Part shown: piece by piece, positions 3,289 to 50,821 of the stretch
Numbering within the stretch: the first letter of the stretch is position 1
Layout of the letters: every line of letters begins with the position of its first letter
Assembly (NCBI RefSeq): GCF_044324875.1
Contig: NZ_CP172185.1
Source of the DNA: Escherichia coli
GTDB taxonomy: Bacteria > Pseudomonadota > Gammaproteobacteria > Enterobacterales > Enterobacteriaceae
Reading direction: 5' to 3' (one strand)
DNA: 64,000 nucleotides
Notes under the pieces: generated by a model
What the model saw: the letters and a program-made list of their open reading frames with translations, nothing else
Database searches by the model: none
What the model was told of the DNA's origin: nothing
Made by a program: the position numbers and the translations under genes

Positions 3289-3384
3289 ATGCTGGGTAAT
3301 ATGAATGTTTTTATGGCCGTACTGGGAATAATTTTATTTTCTGGTTTTCTGGCCGCGTATTTCAGCCACAAATGGGATGACTAA
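3289..3384 (+). CDS. mgtS: MgtS (YneM) 31-aa small membrane protein
   Basis: ATG at 3289 encodes MLGNMNVFMAVLGIILFSGFLAAYFSHKWDD with stop at 3382-3384; not in the ORF track because it is under 60 aa. Confidence 0.85.
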   Translation: MLGNMNVFMAVLGIILFSGFLAAYFSHKWDD

Positions 3385-3411
3385 TGAACGGAGATAATCC
3401 CTCACCTAACC

Positions 3412-3450
3412 GGCCCCTTGTTACAGTTGTGTACAAGGGGCCTGATTTTT
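3412..3450 (+). terminator. Rho-independent terminator of mgtS
   Basis: Stem ggccccttgt...acaaggggcc followed by tgattttt. Confidence 0.6.
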
Positions 3451-3459
3451 ATGACGGCA

Positions 3460-3560
3460 AAAAAAAACCGCCAGTAAACCGGCGGTGAATGCTTGCATGG
3501 ATAGATTTGTGTTTTGCTTTTACGCTAACAGGCATTTTCCTGCACTGATAACGGATCGTT
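3460..3560 (-). ncRNA. mgrR: MgrR small RNA (PhoP-activated), about 95-100 nt
   Basis: Minus-strand unit ending in terminator accgcc-N8-ggcggt plus T9 (3460-3488), preceded by a PhoP-box-like direct repeat at 3590-3610; lies between mgtS and dgcZ as in K-12; ends approximate. Confidence 0.6.
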
Positions 3561-3589
3561 GACACAGTAGCATCAGTTTTCTCAATGAA

Positions 3590-3610
3590 TGTTAAACGGA
3601 GCTTAAACTC
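3590..3610 (-). promoter_or_regulatory. PhoP-box-like direct repeat (GTTTAA-N5-GTTTAA) upstream of mgrR
   Basis: Minus-strand reads gaGTTTAAgctccGTTTAAcat, two hexamers with 11-bp periodicity; overlaps the dgcZ stop. Confidence 0.5.
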
Positions 3611-15510: not shown

Positions 15511-15852
15511 ATGAAAATTACTCTCAGCAAACGAATTGGCCTGCTCGCTTTTCTGCTGCCTTGCGCACTGGCATTGAGCACAACTGTTCATGCCGAAAAT
15601 AACAAACTGGTGATTGAGTCTGGCGACAGTGCGCAAAGCCGCCAGCACGCCGCTATGGAAAAAGAGCAATGGAATGACACGCGCAATCTGCGCCAGAAAG
15701 TGAATAAACGCACTGAAAAAGAGTGGGATAAAGCCGACGCCGCTTTTGATAACCGCGATAAATGTGAGCAAAGCGCCAACATCAATGCCTACTGGGAGCC
15801 AAATACTTTGCGCTGCCTGGACCGTCGAACTGGCCGCGTTATTACCCCCTAA
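15511..15852 (+). CDS. ynfB: YnfB secreted protein, 113 aa
   Basis: Signal peptide plus charged mature region. Confidence 0.85.
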
Positions 15853-15886: not shown

Positions 15887-16447
15887 ATGCCAAGCGCCCA
15901 CAGTGTTAAGCTACGCCCGCTGGAGCGTGAAGATTTACGCTATGTACATCAACTCGACAATAACGCCAGTGTGATGCGTTACTGGTTTGAGGAACCCTAC
16001 GAAGCCTTTGTTGAACTCTCTGATCTGTACGATAAGCATATTCACGATCAGAGCGAACGGCGCTTTGTGGTGGAATGTGACGGCGAAAAAGCCGGTCTGG
16101 TGGAGCTGGTGGAAATTAACCATGTTCATCGCCGCGCAGAATTTCAGATAATTATCTCCCCGGAATATCAGGGGAAAGGTCTGGCAACGCGTGCCGCAAA
16201 ATTAGCAATGGACTATGGCTTCACCGTTCTCAATCTCTATAAGCTGTATCTGATCGTCGATAAAGAGAATGAAAAAGCGATACACATTTACCGCAAGCTT
16301 GGCTTTACGGTTGAAGGTGAATTGATACATGAGTTCTTTATTAATGGTCAATATCGGAATGCCATTCGCATGTGCATATTCCAGCATCAGTATCTGGCAG
16401 AGCACAAAACACCGGGTCAGACTCTCCTGAAGCCGACCGCACAATAG
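15887..16447 (+). CDS. speG: SpeG spermidine N-acetyltransferase, 186 aa
   Basis: GNAT-fold translation; stop TAG at 16445-16447 abuts the IS1 end. Confidence 0.93.
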
Positions 16448-16462
16448 GGTAATGACTCCAAC

Positions 16463-16966
16463 TTATTGATAGTGTTTTATGTTCAGATAATGCCCGATGA
16501 CTTTGTCATGCAGCTCCACCGATTTTGAGAACGACAGCGACTTCCGTCCCAGCCGTGCCAGGTGCTGCCTCAGATTCAGGTTATGCCGCTCAATTCGCTG
16601 CGTATATCGCTTGCTGATTACGTGCAGCTTTCCCTTCAGGCGGGATTCATACAGTGGCCAGCCATCCGTCATCCATATCACCACGTCAAAGGGTGACAGC
16701 AGGCTCATAAGACGCCCCAGCGTCGCCATAGTGCGTTCACCGAATACGTGCGCAACAACCGTCTTCCGGAGCCTGTCATACGCGTAAAACAGCCAGCGCT
16801 GGCGCGATTTAGCCCCGACATAGCCCCACTGTTCGTCCATTTCCGCGCAGACGATGACGTCACTGCCCGGCTGTATGCGCGAGGTTACCGACTGCGGCCT
16901 GAGTTTTTTAAGTGACGTAAAATCGTGTTGAGGCCAACGCCCATAATGCGGGCAGTTGCCCGGCAT
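16463..16966 (-). CDS. insB: IS1 InsB transposase component, 167 aa
   Basis: Translation [26 protein letters not shown]... recognised as IS1 InsB. Confidence 0.93.
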
Positions 16967-17160
16967 CCAACGCCATTCATGGCCATATCAATGATTTTCT
17001 GGTGCGTACCGGGTTGAGAAGCGGTGTAAGTGAACTGCAGTTGCCATGTTTTACGGCAGTGAGAGCAGAGATAGCGCTGATGTCCGGCGGTGCTTTTGCC
17101 GTTACGCACCACCCCGTCAGTAGCTGAACAGGAGGGACAGCTGATAGAAACAGAAGCCAC
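16885..17160 (-). CDS. insA: IS1 InsA, 91 aa
   Basis: Translation [30 protein letters not shown]...; overlaps insB in the -1 frame. Confidence 0.93.
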
Positions 17161-17225
17161 TGGAGCACCTCAAAAACACCATCATACACTAAATCAGTAA
17201 GTTGGCAGCATCACCCACAATAGCA

Positions 17226-17936
17226 TTAATAATAATCGATAGTATTTTTGATGGTGTAAACCCGTTCGATGGCGGGTTTTACTCCTTCATCAACAATGAT
17301 TAGCTGACAGTCCACCGGATTGGCGTGACTGTCATATTCACAGCTCTGTTTTACATTACCAACTCTTTGATTATTCAGTAAAGTAACCGCTGTGTAATCT
17401 AATTTTTTGATCGGGTCCGTTGATGGCGTGGCGCTAACAGATAATGTTTTGTCGTGACTTTTCGTGGTTTTACCCAGCGGATACCCCTGATCATCATAGC
17501 GATATTCCATCTGCATCTGTTTGCTGCTGGCTTTAATCACAAAGCCATTATCATCGGTTTCCCAACTCACCCCGGCAGAAGGTAATTCTGCTAGCTGGCA
17601 TTTTCCCTGCAAACGAACTCTTTTCTCCAGTGTCTGGGCATCACGGTAATAATTGGCGTCCAGTACCAGGGCAACCACGGTATTATTTTCCAGATCCAGT
17701 AATTCGAGTGAATCAAAACAGCCTTCTTCCGACAAAGTCCCCGAAACACGTTTCGTCACTTCACCTTGCTCATCCATTAATGTCTGAGTGAAATCTTTTA
17801 CCGGACCACGCAGCGGATCAAAATCGAATTCATTAGAGAAACTGGCCATCTCAGGGGTAAATGAAAGTGTTACCTCTGTTCGGTCACATCCTGTGAGGAA
17901 TATCGCGAGTAAGCATGGCAGTAATTTGTATTTCAC
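17226..17936 (-). CDS. ynfC: YnfC lipoprotein (UPF0257), 236 aa, probable GTG start
   Basis: Lipobox LTGC after signal peptide; start taken as the GTG encoding VKYKLLPC; stop TAA at 17226-17228 lies 3 bp beyond the IS1 target duplication. Confidence 0.85.
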   Translation of the reverse strand: MKYKLLPCLLAIFLTGCDRTEVTLSFTPEMASFSNEFDFDPLRGPVKDFTQTLMDEQGEVTKRVSGTLSEEGCFDSLELLDLENNTVVALVLDANYYRDAQTLEKRVRLQGKCQLAELPSAGVSWETDDNGFVIKASSKQMQMEYRYDDQGYPLGKTTKSHDKTLSVSATPSTDPIKKLDYTAVTLLNNQRVGNVKQSCEYDSHANPVDCQLIIVDEGVKPAIERVYTIKNTIDYY

Positions 17937-18043
17937 AACAGTCACCAGAGAGTAGAGATGATTCTCAATCATAGTAGCAAATACAGTACTTTACACGTTA
18001 AATGCTATGCTTAAAGAAGTTATCTTCGCGTAAGGAGCTTATG

Positions 18044-18349
18044 ATGAAACTCTCAACCTGCTGTGCCGCGCTTCTGCTCGCCCTCGCCTCACCCGCGGTA
18101 CTCGCCGCGCCGGGATCCTGTGAGCGCATACAGAGCGATATATCACAGCGCATTATCAATAATGGCGTACCCGAAAGCAGCTTCACGTTAAGTATTGTAC
18201 CCAATGACCAGGTTGATCAGCCTGATTCCCAGGTCGTCGGGCATTGCGCTAATGATACGCATAAAATTCTCTACACCCGCACCACCAGCGGTAACGTCTC
18301 TGCTCCCGCGCAGTCTACCCAGGATGGCGCGCCTGCCGAACCGCAGTAA
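18044..18349 (+). CDS. ynfD: YnfD secreted protein, 101 aa
   Basis: Signal peptide MKLSTCCAALLLALASPAVLA; SD aaggag upstream. Confidence 0.8.
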   Translation: MKLSTCCAALLLALASPAVLAAPGSCERIQSDISQRIINNGVPESSFTLSIVPNDQVDQPDSQVVGHCANDTHKILYTRTTSGNVSAPAQSTQDGAPAEPQ

Positions 18350-18547
18350 CACATTATCGACTGAACGCCGGATACGACACATCCGGCGATTTGAACATAC
18401 AACATAATCCCACCTTATTACTCATACCCTTCTATTGATATGGATTAATAATTCTTAACCCAAAATGGGTAGACTCCCTCTATTGTTAGCGCGCTAAATA
18501 TTCAATATATAAACTTTTATATAACGATAAAGATCAGGGAGTGAGTT

Positions 18548-20974
18548 ATGTCCAAAAATGAACAAATGGTGGGCATCAGCCGCAGAACACTCGTTAAATC
18601 TACCGCGATAGGTTCTCTGGCGCTGGCTGCAGGCGGTTTTTCTTTACCGTTCACCCTGCGCAGTGCAGCGGCAGCGGTACAGCAGGCCAGCGAGAAAGTG
18701 GTCTGGGGTGCCTGTTCCGTCAACTGTGGTAGCCGCTGTGCACTTCGTCTGCATGTTAAAGATAATGAAGTGACCTGGGTGGAAACTGACAACACCGGCA
18801 ACGACGAGTATGGCAATCATCAAGTACGTGCCTGTTTGCGCGGTCGCTCCATCCGTCGGCGTATTAATCATCCCGATCGCTTGAATTACCCAATGAAACG
18901 CGTGGGCAAACGCGGCGAAGGCAAATTCGAACGGATTAGCTGGGATGAAGCCCTGGATACTATCGCCAGTAGCCTGAAAAAAACCGTCGAACAATATGGC
19001 AATGAGGCTGTATATATTCAGTACTCTTCAGGGATCGTTGGCGGCAATATGACCCGCTCTTCGCCATCCGCCTCGGCGGTCAAACGCCTGATGAACTGCT
19101 ACGGCGGTTCACTCAACCAGTATGGCTCCTACAGCACCGCGCAAATTTCCTGTGCCATGCCCTACACCTACGGCAGTAATGATGGCAACAGCACCACGGA
19201 TATTGAAAACAGCAAGCTGGTCGTGATGTTTGGTAACAACCCGGCAGAAACCCGCATGAGCGGCGGTGGCATCACTTATCTTCTTGAAAAAGCGCGCGAG
19301 AAATCGAACGCAAAAATGATTGTTATCGATCCGCGATATACCGATACAGCTGCTGGTCGTGAAGACGAATGGCTACCTATTCGCCCGGGCACCGATGCCG
19401 CGCTGGTTGCGGGTATTGCCTGGGTATTGATTAACGAAAATCTCGTTGATCAACCTTTTCTCGATAAATACTGCGTCGGCTATGACGAAAAAACCTTACC
19501 CGCAGATGCACCAAAAAATGGTCACTATAAAGCCTATATTCTTGGTGAAGGAGACGACAAAACAGCGAAAACGCCGCAGTGGGCTTCGCAAATTACCGGT
19601 ATCCCGGTGGACCGTATCATCAAACTGGCGCGTGAAATTGGCACAGCAAAACCCGCTTATATCTGCCAGGGCTGGGGACCGCAACGCCAGGCAAACGGCG
19701 AGCTGACTGCACGCGCTATTGCGATGTTGCCTATTCTGACGGGCAATGTCGGCATCAGCGGCGGAAATAGTGGCGCGCGTGAATCGACCTATACCATTAC
19801 CATAGAACGCCTACCGGTGCTGGATAATCCGGTCAAAACGTCAATCTCCTGCTTCAGCTGGACAGATGCTATCGATCATGGCCCGCAAATGACGGCAATC
19901 CGCGACGGTGTCCGGGGCAAAGATAAACTGGATGTGCCCATTAAGTTCATCTGGAACTACGCGGGAAATACCCTCGTTAATCAGCATTCTGACATCAACA
20001 AAACGCATGAAATTCTGCAGGACGAATCGAAATGCGAAATGATTGTGGTCATCGAAAACTTTATGACCTCATCGGCAAAATATGCCGACATTCTGCTGCC
20101 AGACCTGATGACCGTTGAGCAGGAAGATATTATTCCTAACGACTACGCCGGTAACATGGGATATCTCATTTTCCTCCAGCCTGTCACCAGCGAAAAATTC
20201 GAACGCAAACCGATTTACTGGATCCTGAGTGAAGTCGCGAAACATCTTGGACCTGAAGTCTATCAAAAGTTCACTGAAGGTCGCACTCAGGAACAATGGT
20301 TACAACATCTGTACGCCAAAATGCTTGCCAAAGATCCGGCGTTACCGTCTTACGACGAATTAAAAAAAATGGGTATCTATAAGCGTAAAGATCCCAATGG
20401 TCATTTTGTCGCCTACAAAGCATTTCGTGACGACCCCGAGGCAAATCCACTTAAAACGCCTTCCAGTAAGATTGAAATTTACTCCAGCAAGCTGGCGGAA
20501 ATTGCCCGTACCTGGGAACTGGAAAAAGATGAAGTGATAAGCCCACTGCCGGTTTATGCCTCAACCTTTGAAGGCTGGGACACCCCTGAACGTAGTACCT
20601 TTCCACTGCAACTGTTTGGTTTCCATTACAAATCCCGTACTCACTCGACCTACGGCAACATTGATGTCCTGAAGGCAGCCTGCCGTCAGGAAGTGTGGAT
20701 CAACCCTATAGATGCACAGAAACGTGGGATTGCCAACGGCGATATGGTGCGGGTGTTTAACCATCGTGGCGAAGTTCGGCTACCAGCCAAAGTGACACCA
20801 CGCATTCTCCCTGGGGTTAGCGCTATGGGCCAGGGAGCCTGGCACGAGGCCAATATGTCTGGCGATAAAATCGACCATGGCGGCTGTGTGAATACGCTAA
20901 CCACTCTGCGCCCTTCACCACTGGCGAAGGGAAACCCGCAGCACACTAATCTGGTCGAGATCGAAAAAATATAA
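18548..20974 (+). CDS. ynfE: YnfE Tat-exported molybdopterin oxidoreductase catalytic subunit (DmsA paralog), 808 aa
   Basis: Twin-arginine signal (SRRTLVK) and Cys cluster CSVNCGSRC. Confidence 0.93.
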   Translation: MSKNEQMVGISRRTLVKSTAIGSLALAAGGFSLPFTLRSAAAAVQQASEKVVWGACSVNCGSRCALRLHVKDNEVTWVETDNTGNDEYGNHQVRACLRGRSIRRRINHPDRLNYPMKRVGKRGEGKFERISWDEALDTIASSLKKTVEQYGNEAVYIQYSSGIVGGNMTRSSPSASAVKRLMNCYGGSLNQYGSYSTAQISCAMPYTYGSNDGNSTTDIENSKLVVMFGNNPAETRMSGGGITYLLEKAREKSNAKMIVIDPRYTDTAAGREDEWLPIRPGTDAALVAGIAWVLINENLVDQPFLDKYCVGYDEKTLPADAPKNGHYKAYILGEGDDKTAKTPQWASQITGIPVDRIIKLAREIGTAKPAYICQGWGPQRQANGELTARAIAMLPILTGNVGISGGNSGARESTYTITIERLPVLDNPVKTSISCFSWTDAIDHGPQMTAIRDGVRGKDKLDVPIKFIWNYAGNTLVNQHSDINKTHEILQDESKCEMIVVIENFMTSSAKYADILLPDLMTVEQEDIIPNDYAGNMGYLIFLQPVTSEKFERKPIYWILSEVAKHLGPEVYQKFTEGRTQEQWLQHLYAKMLAKDPALPSYDELKKMGIYKRKDPNGHFVAYKAFRDDPEANPLKTPSSKIEIYSSKLAEIARTWELEKDEVISPLPVYASTFEGWDTPERSTFPLQLFGFHYKSRTHSTYGNIDVLKAACRQEVWINPIDAQKRGIANGDMVRVFNHRGEVRLPAKVTPRILPGVSAMGQGAWHEANMSGDKIDHGGCVNTLTTLRPSPLAKGNPQHTNLVEIEKI

Positions 20975-31449: not shown

Positions 31450-32160
31450 GCATAGCCGGAGGTTTTTCAAATGCGCCTATAAGGCTCTCTTACCAGCCGC
31501 GCCCTAACAGGCGCACACGATCTGACATTTGCATCCAACTTCGTTACTTACGGCCCGTAAACGGGCTGCCCGGATAGGGAATCGATAACTGCTCTCCCAT
31601 TTTATCCTCTTCAAGCTGGTGCTTTATGTAATCCTGTATCTTCGCCGTGTTCTTACCCACCGTATCGACGTAATACCCTCTGCACCAGAACTCCCTGTTC
31701 CTGTATTTGAATTTCAAATCACCAAACTGCTCGTAAAGCATCAGACTGCTTTTCCCTTTCAGATATCCCATAAAGCCTGATACGCTCATTTTGGGCGGGA
31801 TCTCCACAAGCATATGGATATGATCTGCACAGCATTCAGCTTCCAGAATCCGTACACTTTTCCACTCACACAGCTTTCTCAAAATACAGCCTATTGCTCT
31901 ACGCTTCTCTCTGTAGAACACCTGTCTTCGGTATTTTGGCGCAAATACTATGTGATATTTACAGTTCCATCGGGTGTGCGCTAAGCTCTTTTCGTTCCCC
32001 ATTGGGACCCCCTTTTGATTTCTTGTTTGACACTTGCAGTTGCCAGACCGCAAGGTGTTTTAACAAATCAAAAGGGGTTTTAATAACTGGCTCAAAGCTG
32101 AAAGCTTTCCGGAACCCCCAGCCTAGCTGGGGGTTTTCTGTGCACAATAAGTCCGGACTG
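31450..32160 (-). mobile_element. IS200-like element (IS200/IS605 family), about 0.7 kb; ends approximate
   Basis: Contains Y1 (HuH) transposase gene; upstream of its ATG is a stem-loop that includes the SD, and further upstream a perfect palindrome ggaacccccagcctagctgggggtt at ~32103-32128; no terminal inverted repeats expected for this family. Confidence 0.7.
31544..32002 (-). CDS. tnpA: IS200-family TnpA Y1 transposase, 152 aa
   Basis: Translation MGNEKSLAHTRWNCKYHIVFAPKYRRQVFY... with HuH motif (ADHIHMLVEIPP) and catalytic Tyr region. Confidence 0.9.
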   Translation of the reverse strand: MGNEKSLAHTRWNCKYHIVFAPKYRRQVFYREKRRAIGCILRKLCEWKSVRILEAECCADHIHMLVEIPPKMSVSGFMGYLKGKSSLMLYEQFGDLKFKYRNREFWCRGYYVDTVGKNTAKIQDYIKHQLEEDKMGEQLSIPYPGSPFTGRK

Positions 32161-35103: not shown

Positions 35104-35240
35104 ATGGCAAAGCCGATCATCACGCTCAATGGCCTAAAAATCGTCATTATGTTGGGAATGCTGGTCATTATTCTCTGCGGTATCCGTTTTGCCGCCGAGA
35201 TCATCGTGCCGTTTATTCTCGCATTATTTATTGCTGTTAT
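35104..35240 (+). pseudogene. tqsA: tqsA (AI-2 exporter) 5' fragment, first ~45 codons, truncated by element insertion
   Basis: ATG at 35104 encodes [45 protein letters not shown], then the frame runs into AT-rich foreign sequence and stops within ~25 bp; the rest of the gene resumes at 50814. Confidence 0.88.
35232..35240. repeat. Left attachment-site core (attL), 9-bp TGCTGTTAT
   Basis: Same 9-mer recurs at 50813-50821, where the tqsA reading frame resumes. Confidence 0.7.
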
Positions 35241-35316
35241 ATATAACTTATTTCACTTAACACATTGATTTAATTAAATAATTTACACTACAAAAAGTGC
35301 CAAAAATCGCAAATTA

Positions 35317-35369
35317 ACTACACCATTAACTACACCGTTCGGCGCACTGTATGAAACAACGTGGAACAA
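35317..35369 (+). repeat. Left-arm repeat cluster: 2x ACTACACC (12-bp spacing) then GAAACAACGTGGAACAA
   Basis: ACTACACC at 35317-35324 and 35329-35336; 17-mer at 35353-35369 recurs inverted at 49334-49350. Confidence 0.6.
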
Positions 35370-35559
35370 ATAGGCACAAGAAATATAAAGGCGGGTAATT
35401 TTTAGGGGGCGTTAATGTCGATATGGGGATCCACATATCGAGATTGATACCTGGCTTTTTTTCCGGTTAACCTTTAATCAGGCTGGTGGGCTTTACCTGT
35501 TCTGTAGGAGTGGTCATTATGACCATTCAGCCAATGACCTTAATCAGAATTTTTCGCTA

Positions 35560-35590
35560 AAAAATGACGTTGGCCACGTCATCCGGAAAG
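35560..35590 (-). terminator. Probable terminator at the end of the packaging operon
   Basis: Palindrome atgacgttggccacgtcat followed by a T6 run on the minus strand. Confidence 0.45.
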
Positions 35591-35652
35591 CACAAAATCA
35601 CGTCGATTTTTAATGGATGGTTAAACCGTCTTTATCTCGATGTCCGTACGTA

Positions 35653-35943
35653 TTACGTACGCAGTCGTTCCGGCTTCTTCCAGTGGTACGTATTTTTCGC
35701 GCTCTCCCTCCGTTGTTGAGAACGGCGACGGTATGCCAGCAACTCAAGGACTCTTGTTCGTATGTTGCGCATATCCACGCCGTTAAGCTCAATACCATCA
35801 CGGCGCATCACCTCCGCAACAACACGCACATAATTTTCGGCGGTCACGCTGTCCGGCTGCGTGGCCTGTTCGTCATGCTGCTGGCTGATTCCGGTAACGC
35901 GGCGGATTAATCCCAGTAGTTCGGCTTCGCTCATTCTCGTCAT
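35653..35943 (-). CDS. Hypothetical protein (96 aa), start overlaps terL stop (ATGA)
   Basis: ORF start overlaps the terL stop; no recognisable motif. Confidence 0.4.
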   Translation of the reverse strand: MTRMSEAELLGLIRRVTGISQQHDEQATQPDSVTAENYVRVVAEVMRRDGIELNGVDMRNIRTRVLELLAYRRRSQQRRESAKNTYHWKKPERLRT

Positions 35944-37601
35944 ACCCCATCAAACGCCGCAAGCCGCTCTTTGTGGCTGTCGCTCATATCGAATGCAAAT
36001 TCCTCATGCTCTGCCTGGAATGTGCCAAACGCCATCAGCGCCGCAACGCTCGGGTCTATCTTGTTGGATGATTTTTTCTTGTTCGGCTTGATATTGGCGT
36101 TCGCGTCACTCTGCATCACAACATTACTCATTGACCAGGCCAGCACCGGATCACCACGATGCACAATCACCTTCCGGTTAACAAAAACTTCGAACGATTT
36201 CGCCGCCGGACTGAAACGAAGGTATGTTTGCGGGAACGGCTCCACCTCAAATCCCGCCCCCTGTAGCTGTGTTCTCAGGTGAGTGGCGTTCCATGTATCG
36301 AAGCCCACCAGCCTGATACTGAAATTCTCTGCATCCGCCATGATGTCATCACGGATACGGTCATAATCAATGCAGTCACCCGGTGTTGTGCGTATCCAGC
36401 CAGCCTTTACCCACTGGCGATAGATGGCGCGGTTTTTATTGGCGGGGTTCTGTAGCTGAAATTCCGGCAGATAGTGACGGGAAACCAGCATAATTTTTTT
36501 ACCGACCGGGAAGGCATAGCACACGCTGGAAATATCGCTGGTTGATGATAAGTCCAGCCCCGCGTAGCACTCCTGCCCGTATAAATCCGCCTCCGCGAAC
36601 GTTCCGGCGCACTCCGCCCATGCACCGTTACCCATCCACGGCGTAGCCCCCTGACACCAGATATTGAATCGCTTGGTGAGCATTTCCACCCACTGCGACG
36701 GAATACCCCGCGCTTTCTGGATGGTTGAGGCCAGTTTTTCACGATCGACGGAAACATCGATATTGGGATTCGCCTTTATCCACATCGCCGGATCGTCAAC
36801 CTCGCTTTCATCATCCAGCTCGTAAATCAGCACGAACATGGATTCGTTCACCTCTTCACCATCCAGTATCTGGCAGCAATAGTCATAGTGTTGTTTACAG
36901 GCTGAAACAACGTTGCTCCCCGATGTGGTGATGGCAAATAACAGCCCCTCCGGACGCGCCCCCATTCCCAGCTCAAGCGCGGAATAAACCCCGTTGTCAG
37001 GGTGCAGGTGATATTCATCCACAATGGCAAGACTCGGGTTTGTACCTTCAATGGTTGCCGCTTTTGCTGCCAGTGGCTTTAACAGGCTGTTGGTTTTCGC
37101 GTGTATCACCTTGTGTGCCTGAATATTTACCCGCTTTCGTAACGGTCGGGATAAAAGGCACATCTGACGCGCATCATCAAACACGATCCGCGCCTGATCA
37201 CGACTCACGGCGGCGGTGTAAATATCCTGCTGCCCGTTTTCCATAACCAGAAACCAGTTAGCCAGGATAGCGGCGACCGTGGATTTGGCATTTTTTCGCG
37301 GTACTTCAATGAATGCGCTGGTGTATTTGCGCCGTCCGGTGGCCTTAACCTTAAAGCCCAGGATGCACGCAAAGGCGAACTGCTGCCACGGCTCCAGCTC
37401 AATGGGGCTACCGCGCATTGCGCCTTTTACGTGCGGACACACCCTGGAAAAGGCAATAAACCGCTCCACGACCTCCGGATCGAACGTGTAAAGGGGGTTT
37501 TCAAGGTCAGAAAAATACCGTTTAACAGCCTGTTTCAGTCGTTTACAGGCCGTAATTTTGCCGTTTTTTACGCCTTCTGCGTACTCATGCCAGGCGGTCA
37601 A
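35940..37601 (-). CDS. terL: Terminase large subunit, 553 aa
   Basis: ATPase P-loop-like VPRKNAKST and Walker B-like LAIVDEYH, C-terminal nuclease-like region; overlaps terS 3' end. Confidence 0.85.
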   Translation of the reverse strand: MTAWHEYAEGVKNGKITACKRLKQAVKRYFSDLENPLYTFDPEVVERFIAFSRVCPHVKGAMRGSPIELEPWQQFAFACILGFKVKATGRRKYTSAFIEVPRKNAKSTVAAILANWFLVMENGQQDIYTAAVSRDQARIVFDDARQMCLLSRPLRKRVNIQAHKVIHAKTNSLLKPLAAKAATIEGTNPSLAIVDEYHLHPDNGVYSALELGMGARPEGLLFAITTSGSNVVSACKQHYDYCCQILDGEEVNESMFVLIYELDDESEVDDPAMWIKANPNIDVSVDREKLASTIQKARGIPSQWVEMLTKRFNIWCQGATPWMGNGAWAECAGTFAEADLYGQECYAGLDLSSTSDISSVCYAFPVGKKIMLVSRHYLPEFQLQNPANKNRAIYRQWVKAGWIRTTPGDCIDYDRIRDDIMADAENFSIRLVGFDTWNATHLRTQLQGAGFEVEPFPQTYLRFSPAAKSFEVFVNRKVIVHRGDPVLAWSMSNVVMQSDANANIKPNKKKSSNKIDPSVAALMAFGTFQAEHEEFAFDMSDSHKERLAAFDGV

Positions 37602-37941
37602 GCTCGTCCTCTTCCTCTGTTTCCGGTGGATTTCTGCGGCGGCTTACCGGGTCAAAACCCAGCAAAGAAGCCATTTTGATCATTATTCTTTCCGCGTCAG
37701 CCTTTGCGCTCAGGGCGGGGTTTCTGCTCTCGCTGCCCTGACTGTTAACAATGCTGAACCCGCGCGTGGCAAGGTCTTCGACGGCTTTGCGGTATATGGA
37801 GTAGTTAACGCAATACAGCTCCAGATTGCTCCAGTCGGCGGGAGTAAGGTCTTCCCGTCCGGAAAGCTGGCGCGATTTTTCCTTCCACTGCCTGACCGCG
37901 ATTTCATCCAGGTAAGCGGGGGCTTTTGGTGGTCTTGCCAT
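37585..37941 (-). CDS. terS: Terminase small subunit (P27-type), ~118 aa
   Basis: Translation MARPPKAPAYLDEIAVRQWKEKSRQL...; overlaps terL start by 17 nt. Confidence 0.7.
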   Translation of the reverse strand: MARPPKAPAYLDEIAVRQWKEKSRQLSGREDLTPADWSNLELYCVNYSIYRKAVEDLATRGFSIVNSQGSESRNPALSAKADAERIMIKMASLLGFDPVSRRRNPPETEEEDELDRLA

Positions 37942-38004
37942 GTTCTTTTTTCGCCCAATTATTTTCAAAAAAATTCCCGTGCACAAAAATTTGAGCAGGC
38001 GGTC

Positions 38005-38060
38005 GGTTCTGGGCGGGGTCGGGTTCGTCCTGAAAACTCCCCCCCACCCCGTCCGGCTGC
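38005..38060. other. Candidate cos/packaging-initiation region (GC-rich, lambda-cosN-like)
   Basis: gggcggggtcgggttcgtcc and ctcccccccaccccgtccggc between the HNH module and terS; resembles the lambda cohesive end GGGCGGCGACCT. Confidence 0.35.
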
Positions 38061-38064
38061 CTCA

Positions 38065-38247
38065 TCAGCGATTGCGGAAACATTCCATAACCTCGCGGTC
38101 ACGGTCGTTTAATCGCGTCGCTGTGATGCGTTCTGCGCGTCCTGATGCTTTATCTTTATGCCCTGTTTCCTGTGCCTTCCATGCGTCACGCTGCCTTATC
38201 AGTCCACGAATAAGGCTGTTTTGTTCCCGTTCATTCATCAGCGTCAT
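38065..38247 (-). CDS. Possible small hypothetical protein (60 aa) between HNH and terS
   Basis: Internal ATG of the 38065..38481 ORF, starting just before the HNH stop. Confidence 0.3.
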   Translation of the reverse strand: MTLMNEREQNSLIRGLIRQRDAWKAQETGHKDKASGRAERITATRLNDRDREVMECFRNR

Positions 38248-38671
38248 ACATCCAGTTATTGCGGTTGGCTGCCCGTTCTTCCTCCTCACGGAATCCGCCA
38301 ACTGCACGCTTGTTTTTTGTGGCCGGATCAAGCCATTTCGTTTTCTGGTTATGACACGCCTGACACAATGGCTGATGATTCCACTCAGGCCAGAAGAGAA
38401 CATCATTACCGCCATCGATGGGGATAATGTGATCCACCACCACGGCGGGCGTGTATATTCCTTTTTCCAGGCAATGCGCACATAACGGGTTTTTACTCAG
38501 GTACATAGCGCGGTATTTCTCCCACTGCCTCGTATACCCTCGCTCCCTGCTGCTGCCTCTCCGGCTGTCCTGCTGCTGGCGTGCGCTGCGTCTGTGCTCC
38601 TCACACTTGCCGGACTTCACGCGCCTGTTGCAGCCTGGTTGTGTGCATCGTCTCAATGGTTGCCACGGCAT
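38231..38671 (-). CDS. HNH endonuclease (terminase-associated), 146 aa
   Basis: Zn-finger/HNH motifs CTQPGCN...CEEH, CAHC, VDHIIPIDGGND, NHQPLCQACHNQK. Confidence 0.85.
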   Translation of the reverse strand: MPWQPLRRCTQPGCNRRVKSGKCEEHRRSARQQQDSRRGSSRERGYTRQWEKYRAMYLSKNPLCAHCLEKGIYTPAVVVDHIIPIDGGNDVLFWPEWNHQPLCQACHNQKTKWLDPATKNKRAVGGFREEEERAANRNNWMYDADE

Positions 38672-38967
38672 CAGTACACCCCCACATCACGATAAACCGA
38701 CCAGAGCGCGGAAATCGTCAGGGGAATTTCTTTTGTATCGGTATCGCCAAGCGTTGTCCGGTACTCGTACAGTTGCGAGATGTACATCAGGCAACCAATT
38801 TTTATTGCAGGGGTAAATTCCAGGCCGTCATCAAAACGCCTGCCAATATGCTTCTGGCATACCTCCAGCGCCGCGCTTATGTATGCCTGAATCAGTGTGT
38901 CTTCTGTGTTACCATCTATGCGGCAGTGAAGTTTGGCCTCTTCCAGGGTTATTTTTTCTGCTGTCAT
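38671..38967 (-). CDS. gp6-like head-tail connector protein, 98 aa
   Basis: N-terminal LEEAKLHCRID...DTLIQAYISAALE signature. Confidence 0.65.
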   Translation of the reverse strand: MTAEKITLEEAKLHCRIDGNTEDTLIQAYISAALEVCQKHIGRRFDDGLEFTPAIKIGCLMYISQLYEYRTTLGDTDTKEIPLTISALWSVYRDVGVY

Positions 38968-39302
38968 TTTTCTGTACCCACCTTTGCCAGAATTTCCAGC
39001 CGGGTTCTTTTCGCATCAGGTAAGGGGATCCCGATGATATTAAGCGTGCTCCCGGCAAAAGCGCCGGTAAGCACTTTCAGGCGACTGGCGGCGGATATGT
39101 CGCCACGATAGCGAACCCATACCCGAATCGTTGCAGGTGCGGTTTCTGCGCCTGCGGTCAGTAATTCCCGTCCGCTGATCCCCTTGACCTCTGCCCAGAT
39201 GGTTTCCCCTTCCGTCCATATCTGCTGGATCGCACCTGACGGCAGGCGCTGTGTGGTAAATGTCATAATCGTCACCCGGTCCCGCATCTTTCCGGCTATC
39301 AT
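38964..39302 (-). CDS. Head-tail joining / head closure protein, 112 aa
   Basis: Size, position next to portal, and the typical RDRVTI...WAEVKGISGRE pattern. Confidence 0.6.
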   Translation of the reverse strand: MIAGKMRDRVTIMTFTTQRLPSGAIQQIWTEGETIWAEVKGISGRELLTAGAETAPATIRVWVRYRGDISAASRLKVLTGAFAGSTLNIIGIPLPDAKRTRLEILAKVGTEK

Positions 39303-40516
39303 TCGTCACCGCCCTTACTGTTCTTGCTGATTGTCACTTCCTGCTTCCATGCCTGGCTGAACTCGTCGCCACCTTCACGCGGCGGCATTCCCTCACGCTC
39401 ACGGGCTTCGTTCGGATTGATGATCCCGTTCTTAATCCCTTTCTCATACGTGGCGTAACGTTCGGTAGGGGTGGCGCGTAATAAATCGGCTGAATCAAAC
39501 TCAACCAGATAACGGGTACCAGGTACGGGAGAAGCCACCAGCAAAGCAGCCTTGATTTGCTGTTCGAAGTTCGCCAGCCACGGGCGCATTGTCATGGTCA
39601 GAAACGCGCGGCTTGCCTCACTGAAATTGCTGTAGGTGCTGTTGCTGTATTCCTGCAAAAAAATCGGCGAGACGTTGAACATTCGGGCGATGTCTTCAAT
39701 GGTAAAGCGACGGGAGGCCAGCCATTCAGCATCCTGATTACTCATGCCCAGCTGCTGATAGCTCATACCCCCTTCAAGGATGGGCGTTTTTCCGGCGTTT
39801 CTGGCCCCTTTGTAGCGTTCCAGTGCGGCTAATGCCTGTTTGCCCTTCACGCCGTCCAGCCATTCGCCTGACGTGATAACCCCTGCCGCCATCATGCCAT
39901 CACGCATCACGCTCGCGCCGTGGCGTTGTTGGGCCAGCCCAAGCCCCAGCGATTCGCGGCAGATGGTTACAGGTGAGCGCCCCATAAAGCCGTCATCCGT
40001 GGAGTAACGAAGGTGGAGAACCTCCCACGGTAAATAGTTGCGGGTGTTTCCGGTGTAGGCGTCAGTGATGCAGTAGCGCCAGTTATGCTCACCTGTCTGC
40101 TCCACGTTCACCGACTGCGGCGGGTAAGGATGTAAAGCCACCGGAAAACCATCACGCCCCCACTGAATAACCGCATAAGCATTACCGTTTAACAGGCAGT
40201 GGCGGATCATCATTCGCTTAAACTGGTAGGGGGTTTGCCATGCGTTCGGGCGCTCGTTGAGGATGTGATCGACCGGATGAGAATCAAGCCACTCGCGGGC
40301 CTCCTTCCCCTTCTCATTGCGTACCAGGTACAGGTAACACGGCATGGTAGCCACCGCCTCAGAGATGACCGTCACGGCGTTCATGACGGCGGGCAGTGAT
40401 TCCGCTGTCCCCGATGATACGTACTCACCCGCCCCCGTGTTCGATGTGCCCGCCAGCGCCATAAATTCATCAAGCGTCATGCTGCGCTGCTCTTTTTTTC
40501 TTCTGAAAAGCCACAT
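39299..40516 (-). CDS. Portal protein (HK97-type), 405 aa
   Basis: Length and position between protease and connector genes; HK97-portal-like translation. Confidence 0.8.
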   Translation of the reverse strand: MWLFRRKKEQRSMTLDEFMALAGTSNTGAGEYVSSGTAESLPAVMNAVTVISEAVATMPCYLYLVRNEKGKEAREWLDSHPVDHILNERPNAWQTPYQFKRMMIRHCLLNGNAYAVIQWGRDGFPVALHPYPPQSVNVEQTGEHNWRYCITDAYTGNTRNYLPWEVLHLRYSTDDGFMGRSPVTICRESLGLGLAQQRHGASVMRDGMMAAGVITSGEWLDGVKGKQALAALERYKGARNAGKTPILEGGMSYQQLGMSNQDAEWLASRRFTIEDIARMFNVSPIFLQEYSNSTYSNFSEASRAFLTMTMRPWLANFEQQIKAALLVASPVPGTRYLVEFDSADLLRATPTERYATYEKGIKNGIINPNEAREREGMPPREGGDEFSQAWKQEVTISKNSKGGDE

Positions 40517-40517
40517 A

Positions 40518-41090
40518 TCACACCCCCGCTAAATCCACCCACCAGCGGCGATTATCCGCACGCGGCATTTTTTCGGGGTGCTGCTCATACAGGGAACGGC
40601 GGGCCAGCTCCACGCCAGAATCGGGGTAAGCCGGTACCGATGTAACGGTAATTTCGTACAGTTCCGCCACCAGCACGGTACGAACGCATGGATCTGTTGT
40701 GGTATCCCATACATCCTTACGGGAGCGAAAGCCAAAGCTCATGCCGGATATATCACCGCGTTTAACCAGTTCGATAACGTCGCGCCCTGTACTGGTATCC
40801 GGTGGGGTCAGTTCAAAGCGTAACCCTGTTTCGTCCTCTTCCAGTTTCAGCGTGCCGGAACGGGTGCGCCCCAGTAACATGCTGTGGTCATGCTCATACA
40901 GGCCGCGAACGTCATTACCCGCCGCAAGCCATTCAGTAAACGCCCCCCGCTGGAATTTTTCGTAAAACTCACCCCATAACAGTTCTGAAAGCTTATCCCA
41001 GCGAACAACGTAGCCCGTCAGCGTACCGGCTCCGCTCGTGGTGATTTCCGATGACCGGATTTCCATACTCTTCATAATTTTTTCACCCAT
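40518..41090 (-). CDS. Prohead protease (HK97 family), 190 aa
   Basis: Translation resembles HK97-type prohead protease; lies between capsid and portal. Confidence 0.75.
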   Translation of the reverse strand: MGEKIMKSMEIRSSEITTSGAGTLTGYVVRWDKLSELLWGEFYEKFQRGAFTEWLAAGNDVRGLYEHDHSMLLGRTRSGTLKLEEDETGLRFELTPPDTSTGRDVIELVKRGDISGMSFGFRSRKDVWDTTTDPCVRTVLVAELYEITVTSVPAYPDSGVELARRSLYEQHPEKMPRADNRRWWVDLAGV

Positions 41091-41129
41091 AAAACACTAA
41101 AGGGGCTTTTAAGCCCCTTCTGTATGCTG

Positions 41130-49033: not shown

Positions 49034-49316
49034 TATTGCCCCCTTTCGTTTCTTAAAGAGTTATTTCGTGTTCTATTGCGTTGGTATGTGTCTGATTGTG
49101 TCAGGGTGATTCAGAGTTGGCAAATGTTGGTGGCGGGTATTTTACAGAAACGGGGTAATTTTAATAAAAAACATTTTAATTCAGTATTATGCAAAGGCAT
49201 AAAATCTCGTTTTATGCCTTTTTTCTCACTATTTAAAGCGTTATTCGCTAATGTATAAAAAACCAGTTGAGCATTAAAAATCAGCAACTTATAAGTCTGT
49301 ATACTTTTTCGCCTCT

Positions 49317-49359
49317 TGTTCGTGGTTGTTCCACGTTGTTTCACATTGTTCGCCGTTGT
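49317..49359 (-). repeat. Phased GAACAA-type repeats between int and alpA, inverted relative to the other copies
   Basis: Minus strand reads CAACGGCGAACAATGTGAAACAACGTGGAACAACCACGAACAA; contains both 17-mers found at 35353-35369 and 42512-42528. Confidence 0.6.
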
Positions 49360-49407
49360 ATCTGTGTGCTTATCCAGTATGCGCATACTGAAAAAACACG
49401 AAAAAAA

Positions 49408-50637
49408 TTATTTTCTTCTGGCTACTGGTAGCGTGGTTACGTTTTCATGTGCTCCCGCCAGTATCTCCAACCGCTCCACCCACATATCCAGCGCATTGCG
49501 TTTCGCATCCAGATAACGGGAATGATTATAAACTCGCTGCATTCCTGGCATCTGGTGGCCTGTAAGCTGCTCCACGACATGCGGATCAACGCCTAAATCG
49601 TTCAGCATGGTTGTAAAGGTGCGCCGGATGTCATGCAGTGACCAGTGAGGGTGTTTAAGCCTCCTGTGCGCTAATCTTCCATACTGCGATACGCTGGCCT
49701 CCTGTTTCACTTCCCCCAGCAATAAGCCCGTGTGCCTGTTCTGCTCCACCAGCTGCGTGACGAACGGCAGTATCGCTTCCGGTATGGGCCGGAATATGGC
49801 TACCTTCGTTTTGCTGTGCTCCTTCGGAACGGTCCATAGCATTTCGGTAAAATCCCACTCCCCGATCTCCGATAGCCTCAGTTCTACTGTCCTGGCTCCG
49901 AAGACAATCAGGAGGCGGATTAGTGCGACGTAGTAAGGGGAAAATATTTTTTTATCCAGCGCCTGCAATAACTCGCCCAGTTCTTTGGTGCTTAAGACAC
50001 GTTCGCTTATATCCGGTTTTTTCCCAACGTCCGCCACGTTCAGATCGTCCAGAACGTTGCTGATTGCATAGCGCCGCCTACGGCAAAACTTAAGCGCCTG
50101 TTTGCACGCCTGTAGCACGAATCCGGCAGTAACAGGCGTTCGCTTTGCCACCTGGTCAAAACAGGCCAGCCAGTGCCGTAGCTCGCATTTATCCAGCGGC
50201 ATAGCACCAATGTGCTGTATTACGTGATTATTAACTCGCCTTTTCAGGGCGATATAATCCACGCGGTTTTCCTTTACGTAAGACTCAAGCCAGTAGGTGA
50301 GCGCATCGCCAACCGTTACCGGCTTTAACGCTTCCTGTACGGCGTAATTCATCTCATGGCGTGGATTTTTCCCCTCCGCCAGCCATGCGCGACACTGGGC
50401 GGCTTTTTCCCTGGCTGCTTTCAGGCTCAGATCAGGATAATTTCCCAGCTTAATACGTTCCGGTCGTGTCTCTCTTCCCGTTCCTGCCCTGTAAGTGAAA
50501 TACCAGGTTAATATCCCTGATGTTAAATATTTCACGCTCAGATTTCCGCCATCGCTATAAAACGTGTTTTTCTCCGCTGGCTTACCATGAAGTTTCCTTA
50601 GCAAGGTATCGCTCAGTTTGTTCATTGCTCTGCTCAC
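49408..50637 (-). CDS. int: Tyrosine integrase (P4-like family), ~405-409 aa
   Basis: C-terminal catalytic region HDIRRTF ... RVYNHSRY; adjacent to the att junction. Confidence 0.88.
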   Translation of the reverse strand: MSRAMNKLSDTLLRKLHGKPAEKNTFYSDGGNLSVKYLTSGILTWYFTYRAGTGRETRPERIKLGNYPDLSLKAAREKAAQCRAWLAEGKNPRHEMNYAVQEALKPVTVGDALTYWLESYVKENRVDYIALKRRVNNHVIQHIGAMPLDKCELRHWLACFDQVAKRTPVTAGFVLQACKQALKFCRRRRYAISNVLDDLNVADVGKKPDISERVLSTKELGELLQALDKKIFSPYYVALIRLLIVFGARTVELRLSEIGEWDFTEMLWTVPKEHSKTKVAIFRPIPEAILPFVTQLVEQNRHTGLLLGEVKQEASVSQYGRLAHRRLKHPHWSLHDIRRTFTTMLNDLGVDPHVVEQLTGHQMPGMQRVYNHSRYLDAKRNALDMWVERLEILAGAHENVTTLPVARRK

Positions 50638-50664
50638 GCTTTACCCCTTGTTTACGAAAAAGTG

Positions 50665-50728
50665 ACTACACCAGTGACTACACCGATCGTTGCACAAAGG
50701 GCTACAACGTGAAACAAGCTGGAACAAG
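50665..50728 (+). repeat. Right-arm repeat cluster: 2x ACTACACC (12-bp spacing) then GTGAAACAAGCTGGAACAAG
   Basis: ACTACACC at 50665-50672 and 50677-50684; GAAACAA/GGAACAA repeats at 50709-50728; same layout as the left arm. Confidence 0.6.
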
Positions 50729-50812
50729 AAAAATCACAAATTTGTTTATAATCAAAAACATAATGAACAAACTGAAACATTATGAAACGGCAAAAAACAC
50801 TAATTGATAAAA

Positions 50813-50821
50813 TGCTGTTAT
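50813..50821. repeat. Right attachment-site core (attR), 9-bp TGCTGTTAT
   Basis: Direct repeat of 35232-35240; tqsA frame resumes here. Confidence 0.7.

Follow-up and report, generated by a model that had tools for sequence, protein, structure and literature searches.

Insertion sequence (IS)-mediated inactivation of speG has been described in Shigella and EIEC as a pathoadaptive change that costs these bacteria their spermidine acetyltransferase (Barbagallo et al. 2011, Campilongo et al. 2014; PMC3213128, PMC4156367), in the same papers that describe the ynfB-speG operon. In Escherichia coli MG1655, speG and its convergent neighbour ynfC have been assigned to the core convergent excludome (ExcludonFinder, NAR 2025; PMC12288877), with overlap of the two transcripts reported in at least 50% of 58 MG1655 transcriptomes (PMC12288877). 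ISs in general are more frequent than expected between convergent genes in 68 of 116 genomes, which has been read as marking the least intrusive place for an insertion (Plague 2010, PMC2942039). Work on IS1 in K-12 has attributed more than 99.9% of its transposition to the 'consensus' element, copies with at least nine mismatches being nearly inactive, and has found that upstream transcription raises both IS1 transcription and transposition (PMC12428005).

The locus analysed here lies in a 64,000-nucleotide stretch of an E. coli genome (contig NZ_CP172185.1, assembly GCF_044324875.1; 'the window'), and has the ynfB-speG locus and the class of agent in common with the Shigella and EIEC cases, which include IS1N in S. 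dysenteriae, but differs in that the IS sits just past the speG stop codon, with the ORF and the promoter region intact. With the MG1655 excludon it shares the gene pair and, in its reconstructed ancestral state, the same 2-bp tail-to-tail layout, whereas here the partners stand 776 bp apart (IS1 plus a duplication), the transcript overlap itself being known from MG1655. As in the survey of convergent genes, the present IS1 is intergenic between tail-to-tail genes, although the target offered only 2 bp of intergenic sequence. This arrangement very probably arose when a structurally intact IS1A-type IS1 recently transposed, in a simple event, into the AT-rich junction of the convergent genes speG and ynfC. 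The genes and the junction, in coordinates of the window, are:

15511-15852, plus strand: ynfB (DUF1283), which precedes speG in the ynfB-speG operon, from the ORF list
15887-16447, plus strand: speG, spermidine N1-acetyltransferase, 186 aa, with its TAG stop at 16445-16447 inside the left target-site duplication (TSD)
16440-16447, no strand: left copy of the 8-bp TSD, CACAATAG, which includes the speG stop codon
16448-17215, transposase genes on the minus strand: IS1, 768 bp, with IRR at its left end and IRL at its right
17216-17223, no strand: right copy of the 8-bp TSD, CACAATAG, a perfect match to the left copy
17224-17225, no strand: CA, the whole original speG-ynfC spacer, between the right TSD and the ynfC stop
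17226-17936, minus strand: ynfC, YnfC-family lipoprotein, 236 aa; GTG start at 17936, stop codon at 17226-17228

The original prediction of a 768-bp IS1 flanked by an 8-bp duplication containing the speG stop was borne out when the two repeats were re-read at these positions. The ninth base is mismatched between the flanks (G versus C), which limits the duplication to 8 bp; the probability that 8 bp agree by chance at two fixed positions is 4^-8, or ∼1.5e-5. On the right of the cut, 30 bp of AT-rich sequence follow (TAGCATTAATAATAATCGATAGTATTTTTG), consistent with the preference of IS1 for A+T-rich targets that Meyer, Iida and Arber reportedly described in 1980. As an IS1 duplication size, 8 bp is less common than 9 bp. 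Duplications of either size are stated for IS1 in PMC12428005, and a nearby natural IS1 insertion (H1) carries one of 9 bp. Two details of the predicted geometry required adjustment: the ynfC stop, placed 3 bp beyond the right repeat, does begin at the third base, leaving a gap of 2 bp rather than 3, and the span of the feature, given as 16439-17228, starts one base before the left repeat, a trivial offset. Staggered cleavage across the 8 bp of CACAATAG, followed by repair, has given a second copy of the final 8 bp of speG, which therefore retains its own stop codon; ynfC lies wholly to the right of the duplication. Both ORFs are spared in a 2-bp target because the duplication regenerates the end of speG.

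That both ORFs are intact, as had been claimed, is supported by full-length matches of SpeG to the NCBIfam equivalog NF011709 (1-186/186, E=1.6e-122; GNAT domains in Pfam) and of YnfC to NCBIfam NF002798 (1-236/236) and Pfam UPF0257 (1-236/236). The exact proteins are widespread in IS-free genomes, SpeG being present in 269 collection blocks and YnfC in 610, and every locus returned by exact-protein look-ups of the two was IS-free. The convergent geometry of speG and ynfC was confirmed from the ORFs, and ynfB is annotated as such in the collinear strain A10. Neither protein is changed, and no promoter is touched, by the IS1 insertion.

The empty site was reconstructed in silico by removing the IS together with one copy of the repeat, and 5383 of 5426 complete E. 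coli genomes align to a 600-bp stretch of it without interruption, the aligned span being exactly 600 bp among the matches listed. The junction GACCGCACAATAGCATTAATAA is exact, base for base, in all 10 IS-free loci that were read, comprising seven loci with an identical YnfC protein, K-12, O55:H7 and a third strain; each reads TAG-CA-TTA, which confirms both the 2-bp original spacer and the IS-free junction that had been predicted. Two IS-free relatives (L018 and L013) differ from the reconstructed sequence at two and three of 6561 nt, respectively, and the region upstream of speG shows 2-3 nt differences from IS-free relatives in 3 kb.

None of the 5426 complete genomes carries IS1 at the exact speG-ynfC site (megablast, IS plus 300-bp flanks), and the exact 30-nt left junction CCGACCGCACAATAGGGTAATGACTCCAAC has no match in the GTDB representative genomes or the JGI metagenome contigs. 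Seven of the 5426 genomes have IS1 in the neighbourhood, all at other positions; in E. coli P30_L1_05.20 it is located inside speG. The insertion is regarded as recent and private because no searched genome or metagenome collection has IS1 at this exact site, and by its site it differs from the known IS1 copies. It is a strain-specific polymorphism, and thus a feature of an already known kind, not a new one.

The component parts of the element are:

16448-16470, plus strand: IRR, the 23-bp terminal inverted repeat of the left end, GGTAATGACTCCAACTTATTGAT
16463-16966, minus strand: insB' reading frame, DDE_Tnp_IS1 domain, expressed only as the InsAB' fusion
16885-17160, minus strand: insA, 91 aa, repressor and DNA-binding protein of IS1
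16901-16911, minus strand: A6C programmed -1 frameshift motif TTAAAAAACTC, which yields the InsAB' transposase
17181-17208, minus strand: promoter-like site CTGCCA-16-TATGAT inside IRL, from a consensus scan
17193-17215, minus strand: IRL, the 23-bp terminal inverted repeat of the right end, GGTGATGCTGCCAACTTACTGAT

In length, inverted repeats, two-ORF layout with a -1 frameshift, domain content, a duplication within the 8-9 bp range and near identity to the reference, the element agrees with the IS1 family, whose imperfect inverted repeats of ∼23 bp begin GGT(A/G)ATG. IS1 itself was found in 4969 of the 5426 complete E. coli genomes, at a median of 11 places per genome. IRR and IRL match at 18 of 23 positions. 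IS1A of K-12 has the same 768 bp, the same 23-bp inverted repeats, an identical insA, the A6C motif and a 232-aa InsAB', and differs from the present copy by 3 nt (765/768 identical), one of which accounts for the single amino-acid change (S to R) in the InsB' part; copies that are 100% identical to the present one occur in four E. coli records. The InsA protein is identical to that of K-12 and is matched by both Zn_ribbon_InsA and HTH_Tnp_IS1 of Pfam (PF03811 and PF12759, above cut-offs). The A6C motif lies at IS position 305, counted from IRL, and the conceptual frameshifted InsAB', 232 aa as in K-12, matches the full length of the DDE_Tnp_IS1 model (PF03400, 1-131/131, E=3.5e-78, above cut-off) and scores 245 bits against NCBIfam transpos_IS1 (cut-off 100). 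The promoter-like site within IRL is, by its position and from general knowledge of IS1, presumably the insA promoter. The copy is structurally intact, with both inverted repeats, insA, the A6C motif and the full InsAB' frame; its ability to transpose, at 3 nt from the 'consensus' IS1A, is not assured.

The original prediction further held that the 3' UTRs and terminators of speG and ynfC had been replaced by IS1 sequence, and this requires qualification on both counts. Each gene has, for its native 3' UTR, sequence antisense to the coding end of the other, which is still present, displaced by 776 bp; a spacer of 2 bp leaves no room for an intergenic terminator, and none can have been there to lose. 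A consensus scan gave no convincing intrinsic terminator for speG or ynfC, terminator-like sites being no commoner than in shuffled sequence, and the four junction RNAs folded no more stably than shuffles (z-scores -1.15 to +1.02); with no excess in the scan and unremarkable folds, no terminator can be called lost. The only candidates are a site at 16294-16277 inside speG, from the scan, and, beyond the element, a modest hairpin that is a weak candidate terminator for speG read-through:

17259-17280, plus strand: hairpin AAACCCG-N8-CGGGTTT with a short run of T after it, within the ynfC 3' end

K-12, O55:H7 and 13C1065T all share the stem of this hairpin, the loop being variable, and the distance of the hairpin from the speG stop has grown from ∼35 nt in the IS-free state to ∼810 nt; its fold z-score is only -1.15, and the terminator scan left it uncalled. 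At the IRL end, a possible outward hybrid promoter, TTGGCA-17 nt-ATTAAT (17202-17230, plus strand), was rejected, as it lacks the conserved A at position 2 of the -10 element and was not called by the scan; at the IRR end there was no credible outward hybrid promoter. A scan with Rfam at the gathering threshold found no RNA family at or near the junction. The effect of IS1 on mRNA stability or read-in transcription that had been suggested is plausible.

The following consequences for RNA are expected of the simple insertion. In the IS-free state each transcript would run antisense into the other gene, and 776 bp now lie between the two. Read-through from speG would cross IS1 antisense to insB' and insA as untranslated RNA, with a C/G ratio of 1.05-1.56 across the first ∼390 nt of the element; an untranslated RNA richer in C than in G makes Rho-dependent termination likely over that stretch, as judged from composition, and the antisense overlap that speG and ynfC share would probably shrink. 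Read-through from ynfC, by the orientation of IS1, passes through IRL into the element in the same sense as insA; it may increase transcription of insA/insAB' and in that way influence how mobile the copy is. A further reading, in which IS1 acts as an insulator that splits the speG-ynfC excludon and relieves or alters its mutual antisense control, with ynfC read-through driving insA/insAB' expression and so coupling the activity of this IS copy to ynfC expression, is unlikely.

Selection for a regulatory change at the polyamine locus, in which SpeG would be lowered or raised and spermidine acetylation shifted, as in a milder form of the Shigella/EIEC silencing of speG, is unlikely. The proposed routes are replacement of the proximal speG 3' UTR, or transcripts from the insA promoter and from ynfC read-through that leave IRR antisense into speG. 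IS hits at the speG locus of Shigella and EIEC have measured effects on spermidine and on survival of oxidative stress (PMC3213128, PMC4156367), the speG and ynfC transcripts overlap in MG1655, and the transcription of IS1 itself is directed toward speG, in antisense. Against this, antisense read-through from ynfC reaches speG even where no IS is present. The speG ORF is intact, as is the ynfB-speG region upstream of it, and both are all but identical to their counterparts in IS-free relatives. Silencing of the Shigella kind involves destruction of the ORF or of the ynfB-speG promoter, whereas SpeG here is full length, and nothing in the sequence indicates a loss of SpeG function. Nor does the surrounding DNA resemble an IS-laden Shigella genome, no other hallmark of which is present in the window (one IS1, one IS200-like element). 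A Shigella origin of the window finds no support either: E. coli A10 is its nearest complete genome on the left, ISs are few and speG is intact. The absence of the insertion from every other genome and metagenome searched gives no sign of spread or recurrence, and IS1 is not enriched in the ynfB-ynfD interval, being found there in seven genomes against ∼24 expected, a rough even-spread estimate that was derived from the chromosomal IS1 count and ignores clonal inheritance.

It is very improbable that IS1 marks a rearrangement or an import, be it one terminus of a composite transposon, a junction left by IS1-IS1 recombination or the boundary of a recombined tract. Among complete genomes, E. coli A10 is the closest over the left ∼22 kb of the window, draft loci being closer still, and identity to A10 is uneven, at 99.95% on the left versus 98.8-99.3% further right, as might be expected of a recombined tract; the step in divergence, however, falls near 22 kb, ∼5 kb beyond the right end of the IS, and not at 17.2 kb, on which ground a recombination breakpoint at the element was rejected. 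The 3 kb adjoining IS1 on the right are identical to A10 (no mismatches in 17224-20243); on the left, eight mismatches are spread over 16.4 kb. A product of recombination between two IS1 copies would have flanks that do not match, as in K-12 IS1A and H7, whereas the TSD here is perfect; there is only one IS1 in the window, and both flanks are collinear with A10 and with thousands of other genomes. The matching TSD and collinear flanks effectively refute this reading. Misplacement of a repeat-collapsed IS1 by the assembler is least credible of all: although an element so highly repeated in E. coli is of a kind that commonly breaks or confuses assemblies, a misplaced copy would not give a precise 8-bp target duplication at the exact IS1 termini. 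The junctions here are exact to the base, and the remainder of the window is collinear with relatives.

Simple transposition of an intact IS1 thus remains the preferred explanation, and the insertion appears to have been tolerated and is probably neutral or nearly so, the space between convergent genes being where ISs do least harm and are known to build up. As a clean private lineage marker, the speG-ynfC IS1 junction has little import beyond strain typing, and it shows in textbook form how IS1 can insert with an 8-bp duplication and spare the ORFs. It could also serve as a convenient natural test case for a convergent excludon whose partners have been pulled 776 bp apart, and for the feeding of IS1 transposase expression by read-through from a host gene, here ynfC, as suggested for other contexts by recent work in K-12. 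Since speG controls spermidine acetylation and is an antivirulence locus in Shigella, a measurable effect on speG, of which there is no sign here, would be of some physiological interest; insulation of the two genes by IS1, if true, would be a natural case of an IS rewiring regulation at the 3' end, not the promoter, without touching the ORFs.

The IS1 element lies between the stop codons of the tail-to-tail genes speG and ynfC, in the following arrangement:

15887-16447, plus strand: speG, with its stop codon TAG (16445-16447) within the left copy of the target-site duplication (TSD)
16440-16447: left TSD copy CACAATAG, directly left of IS1
16448-17215: IS1, exactly 768 bp, transposase genes on the minus strand
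16463-16966, minus strand: insB' frame
16885-17160, minus strand: insA
16901-16911, minus strand: TTAAAAAACTC frameshift motif
17216-17223: right TSD copy CACAATAG, directly right of IS1
17226-17936, minus strand: ynfC, with its stop codon (17226-17228) two bases (CA) past the right TSD copy

The left end of IS1 reads GGTAATGACTCCAACTTATTGAT and the right end, on the minus strand, reads GGTGATGCTGCCAACTTACTGAT; these terminal repeats of 23 bp agree with each other at 18/23 positions. Pfam domains in its products comprise the InsA zinc ribbon, InsA HTH and DDE_Tnp_IS1, and the InsAB' fusion (232 aa after a conceptual -1 frameshift) is an IS1-family transposase according to NCBIfam. Of the element's 768 bases, 765 agree with K-12 IS1A and 3 differ, with InsA identical and one S-to-R change in InsAB', and 100% identical copies are present in four E. 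coli records. Most complete E. coli genomes contain IS1 (4969 of 5426; median 11 places each); the 64-kb window carries one copy, at 16448-17215.

Flanking repeats matching on both sides had been claimed in the original prediction, and the perfect CACAATAG copies bear this out; the duplication is set at 8 bp because the ninth base mismatches on both sides. Duplications of 8 or 9 bp have been reported for IS1 (PMC12428005), and a natural IS1 within speG of strain P30_L1_05.20 has a 9-bp duplication, the commoner size. Deletion of IS1 and one repeat copy yields the empty site ...GACCGCACAATAG-CA-TTAATAATAATCG..., a 600-bp reconstruction of which aligns as a single piece in 5383/5426 complete E. 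coli genomes, spanning exactly 600 bp in all full-coverage matches listed. The IS-free junction, foreseen as tag-ca-tta, was recovered to the letter in seven loci with identical YnfC, as well as in K-12, O55:H7 CB9615 and strain 13C1065T, and the anatomy originally described for the insertion is correct. Loci with identical SpeG are IS-free among the matches listed, two of them differing from the reconstructed IS-free window at 2 (L018, GCA_027706465.1) and 3 (L013) of 6561 bases. SpeG residue 147 (codon 16325-16327) is Ile here and Met in the collinear E. coli strain A10 (ATA vs ATG, mismatch at 16327); the Ile147 allele is natural and widespread, with 269 collection blocks, IS-free among the matches listed. 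One draft contig with an identical ynfC allele (GCA_017774835.1, DADTOK010000001.1) stops 28 bp past ynfB, between ynfB and ynfA, which may reflect a repeat or IS there on the promoter side of ynfB-speG.

No IS1 was found at the junction site in 5426 complete E. coli genomes, and the exact 30-nt left junction was not found in GTDB representative genomes or JGI metagenome contigs; given this absence from the searched collections, together with the near-identical IS-free relatives, the insertion is recent and private. Only seven complete E. coli genomes (H1-H7) carry IS1 near enough to join the flanks, all seven at other positions:

H1: IS1 inside speG (NZ_CP085060.1, 1722-2489), 9-bp TSD TGCCATTCG
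H3, H4: IS1 inside ynfC
H7: IS1 inside ynfC (NZ_AP022105.1, 2141-2908), no TSD; an accompanying deletion takes out ynfD and extends through the 5' end region of ynfE
H2, H5, H6: IS1 near ynfB or ynfD, placed from match span and annotation

These seven genomes compare with roughly two dozen expected, a rough estimate that spreads chromosomal IS1 places evenly over the genome and ignores clonal inheritance. The speG-ynfC locus is no IS1 hot spot in E. coli, and the feature is of an already known kind, a strain-specific IS1 insertion polymorphism.

The insertion is probably tolerated. SpeG (match 1-186/186) and YnfC (1-236/236) are full length by NCBIfam, and the regions upstream of both genes are unchanged. 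Only 11 of ~1274 target positions across the two genes spare both ORFs, the actual insertion being the leftmost. The 30 bp right of the cut are AT-rich, in agreement with a bias of IS1 toward A+T-rich DNA, as reported (Meyer, Iida and Arber 1980). ISs are in excess between convergent genes in 68/116 genomes, read as weaker purifying selection there (PMC2942039). A selected, adaptive change at speG is very unlikely, even though speG is a documented antivirulence locus, which raises the prior for such an effect: Shigella has lost its function through IS1N, IS911/IS600, deletions or point mutations, and EIEC HN280 through IS2 in the promoter, which alters spermidine levels and survival under stress (PMC3213128, PMC4156367). 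Unlike those knocked-out loci, speG here retains an intact ORF and promoter; moreover, only this sequence, among those searched, carries the insertion, and ISs are not abundant in the surrounding 64 kb. A rearrangement scar at IS1 is rejected, as the flanks are collinear with A10, the divergence step lies elsewhere and the TSD copies match, the last also disfavouring IS1-IS1 recombination; the flanks of K-12 IS1A and of the deletion-associated H7 copy show no match.

The window is collinear with A10 except for three insertions (IS1, a 706-bp IS200-like element and a 15.6-kb island), with 99.95% identity on the left and lower identity far right. The 3 kb immediately right of IS1 are identical to A10; divergence is 0.05% up to ~22 kb and 0.7-1.2% thereafter, and this step, which falls within ynfE/ynfF, marks a boundary of mosaicism or recombination unconnected with IS1. 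The other features comprise:

3378-3591, minus strand: STnc560 (Hfq-binding sRNA), full-length Rfam match, 281 bits
31440-32145: IS200-like element, absent from A10
31547-32002, minus strand: Y1_Tnp transposase ORF, in the IS200-like element
32012-32135: STnc490 (Rfam match), in the IS200-like element
35241-50812: island, absent from A10
35232-35240 and 50813-50821: 9-bp direct repeat TGCTGTTAT bounding the island
47472-47559: C4 antisense RNA, within the island

The IS200-like element sits ~9 nt past the ynfM stop, a second IS in the window at a gene's 3' end. The island sits ~137 nt inside tqsA, which is therefore probably disrupted. It encodes integrase, primase/helicase-like, repressor-like, major head, protease, portal, head-closure, and small and large terminase proteins, with no tail genes among 10 ORFs scanned, and resembles a phage satellite of the capsid-forming type (cf-PICI-like).

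The original prediction is supported in part, its statement that IS1 replaces the 3' UTRs and terminators being imprecise: native sequence is retained and no intergenic terminator existed, since the spacer was only 2 bp. In the IS-free state, the 3' UTR of each gene runs antisense through the coding end of the other, and speG-ynfC is among 165 core convergent excludons of MG1655, detected in 50% or more of 58 transcriptomes (ExcludonFinder, PMC12288877). Terminator-like sites in a consensus scan showed no excess over shuffled sequence; two candidates are:

17259-17280, inside ynfC: modest candidate terminator hairpin, stem conserved, loop variable
16294-16277, inside speG: candidate terminator site from the consensus scan

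All candidate 3'-end sequences are retained, now 776 bp farther from the stop codons. From its orientation, speG read-through would cross IS1 as untranslated RNA antisense to insB'/insA, in which C exceeds G over the first ~390 nt of IS1, making Rho-dependent termination plausible; this would fit classical IS1 polarity. Read-through from ynfC would enter IS1 at its terminal repeat IRL, sense to insA, and in recent K-12 experiments upstream host transcription increased IS1 transcription and transposition, while an upstream terminator had a lowering effect (PMC12428005). Taken with what is known of IS1, its orientation and composition suggest that the speG-ynfC transcript overlap defining the excludon is probably reduced.
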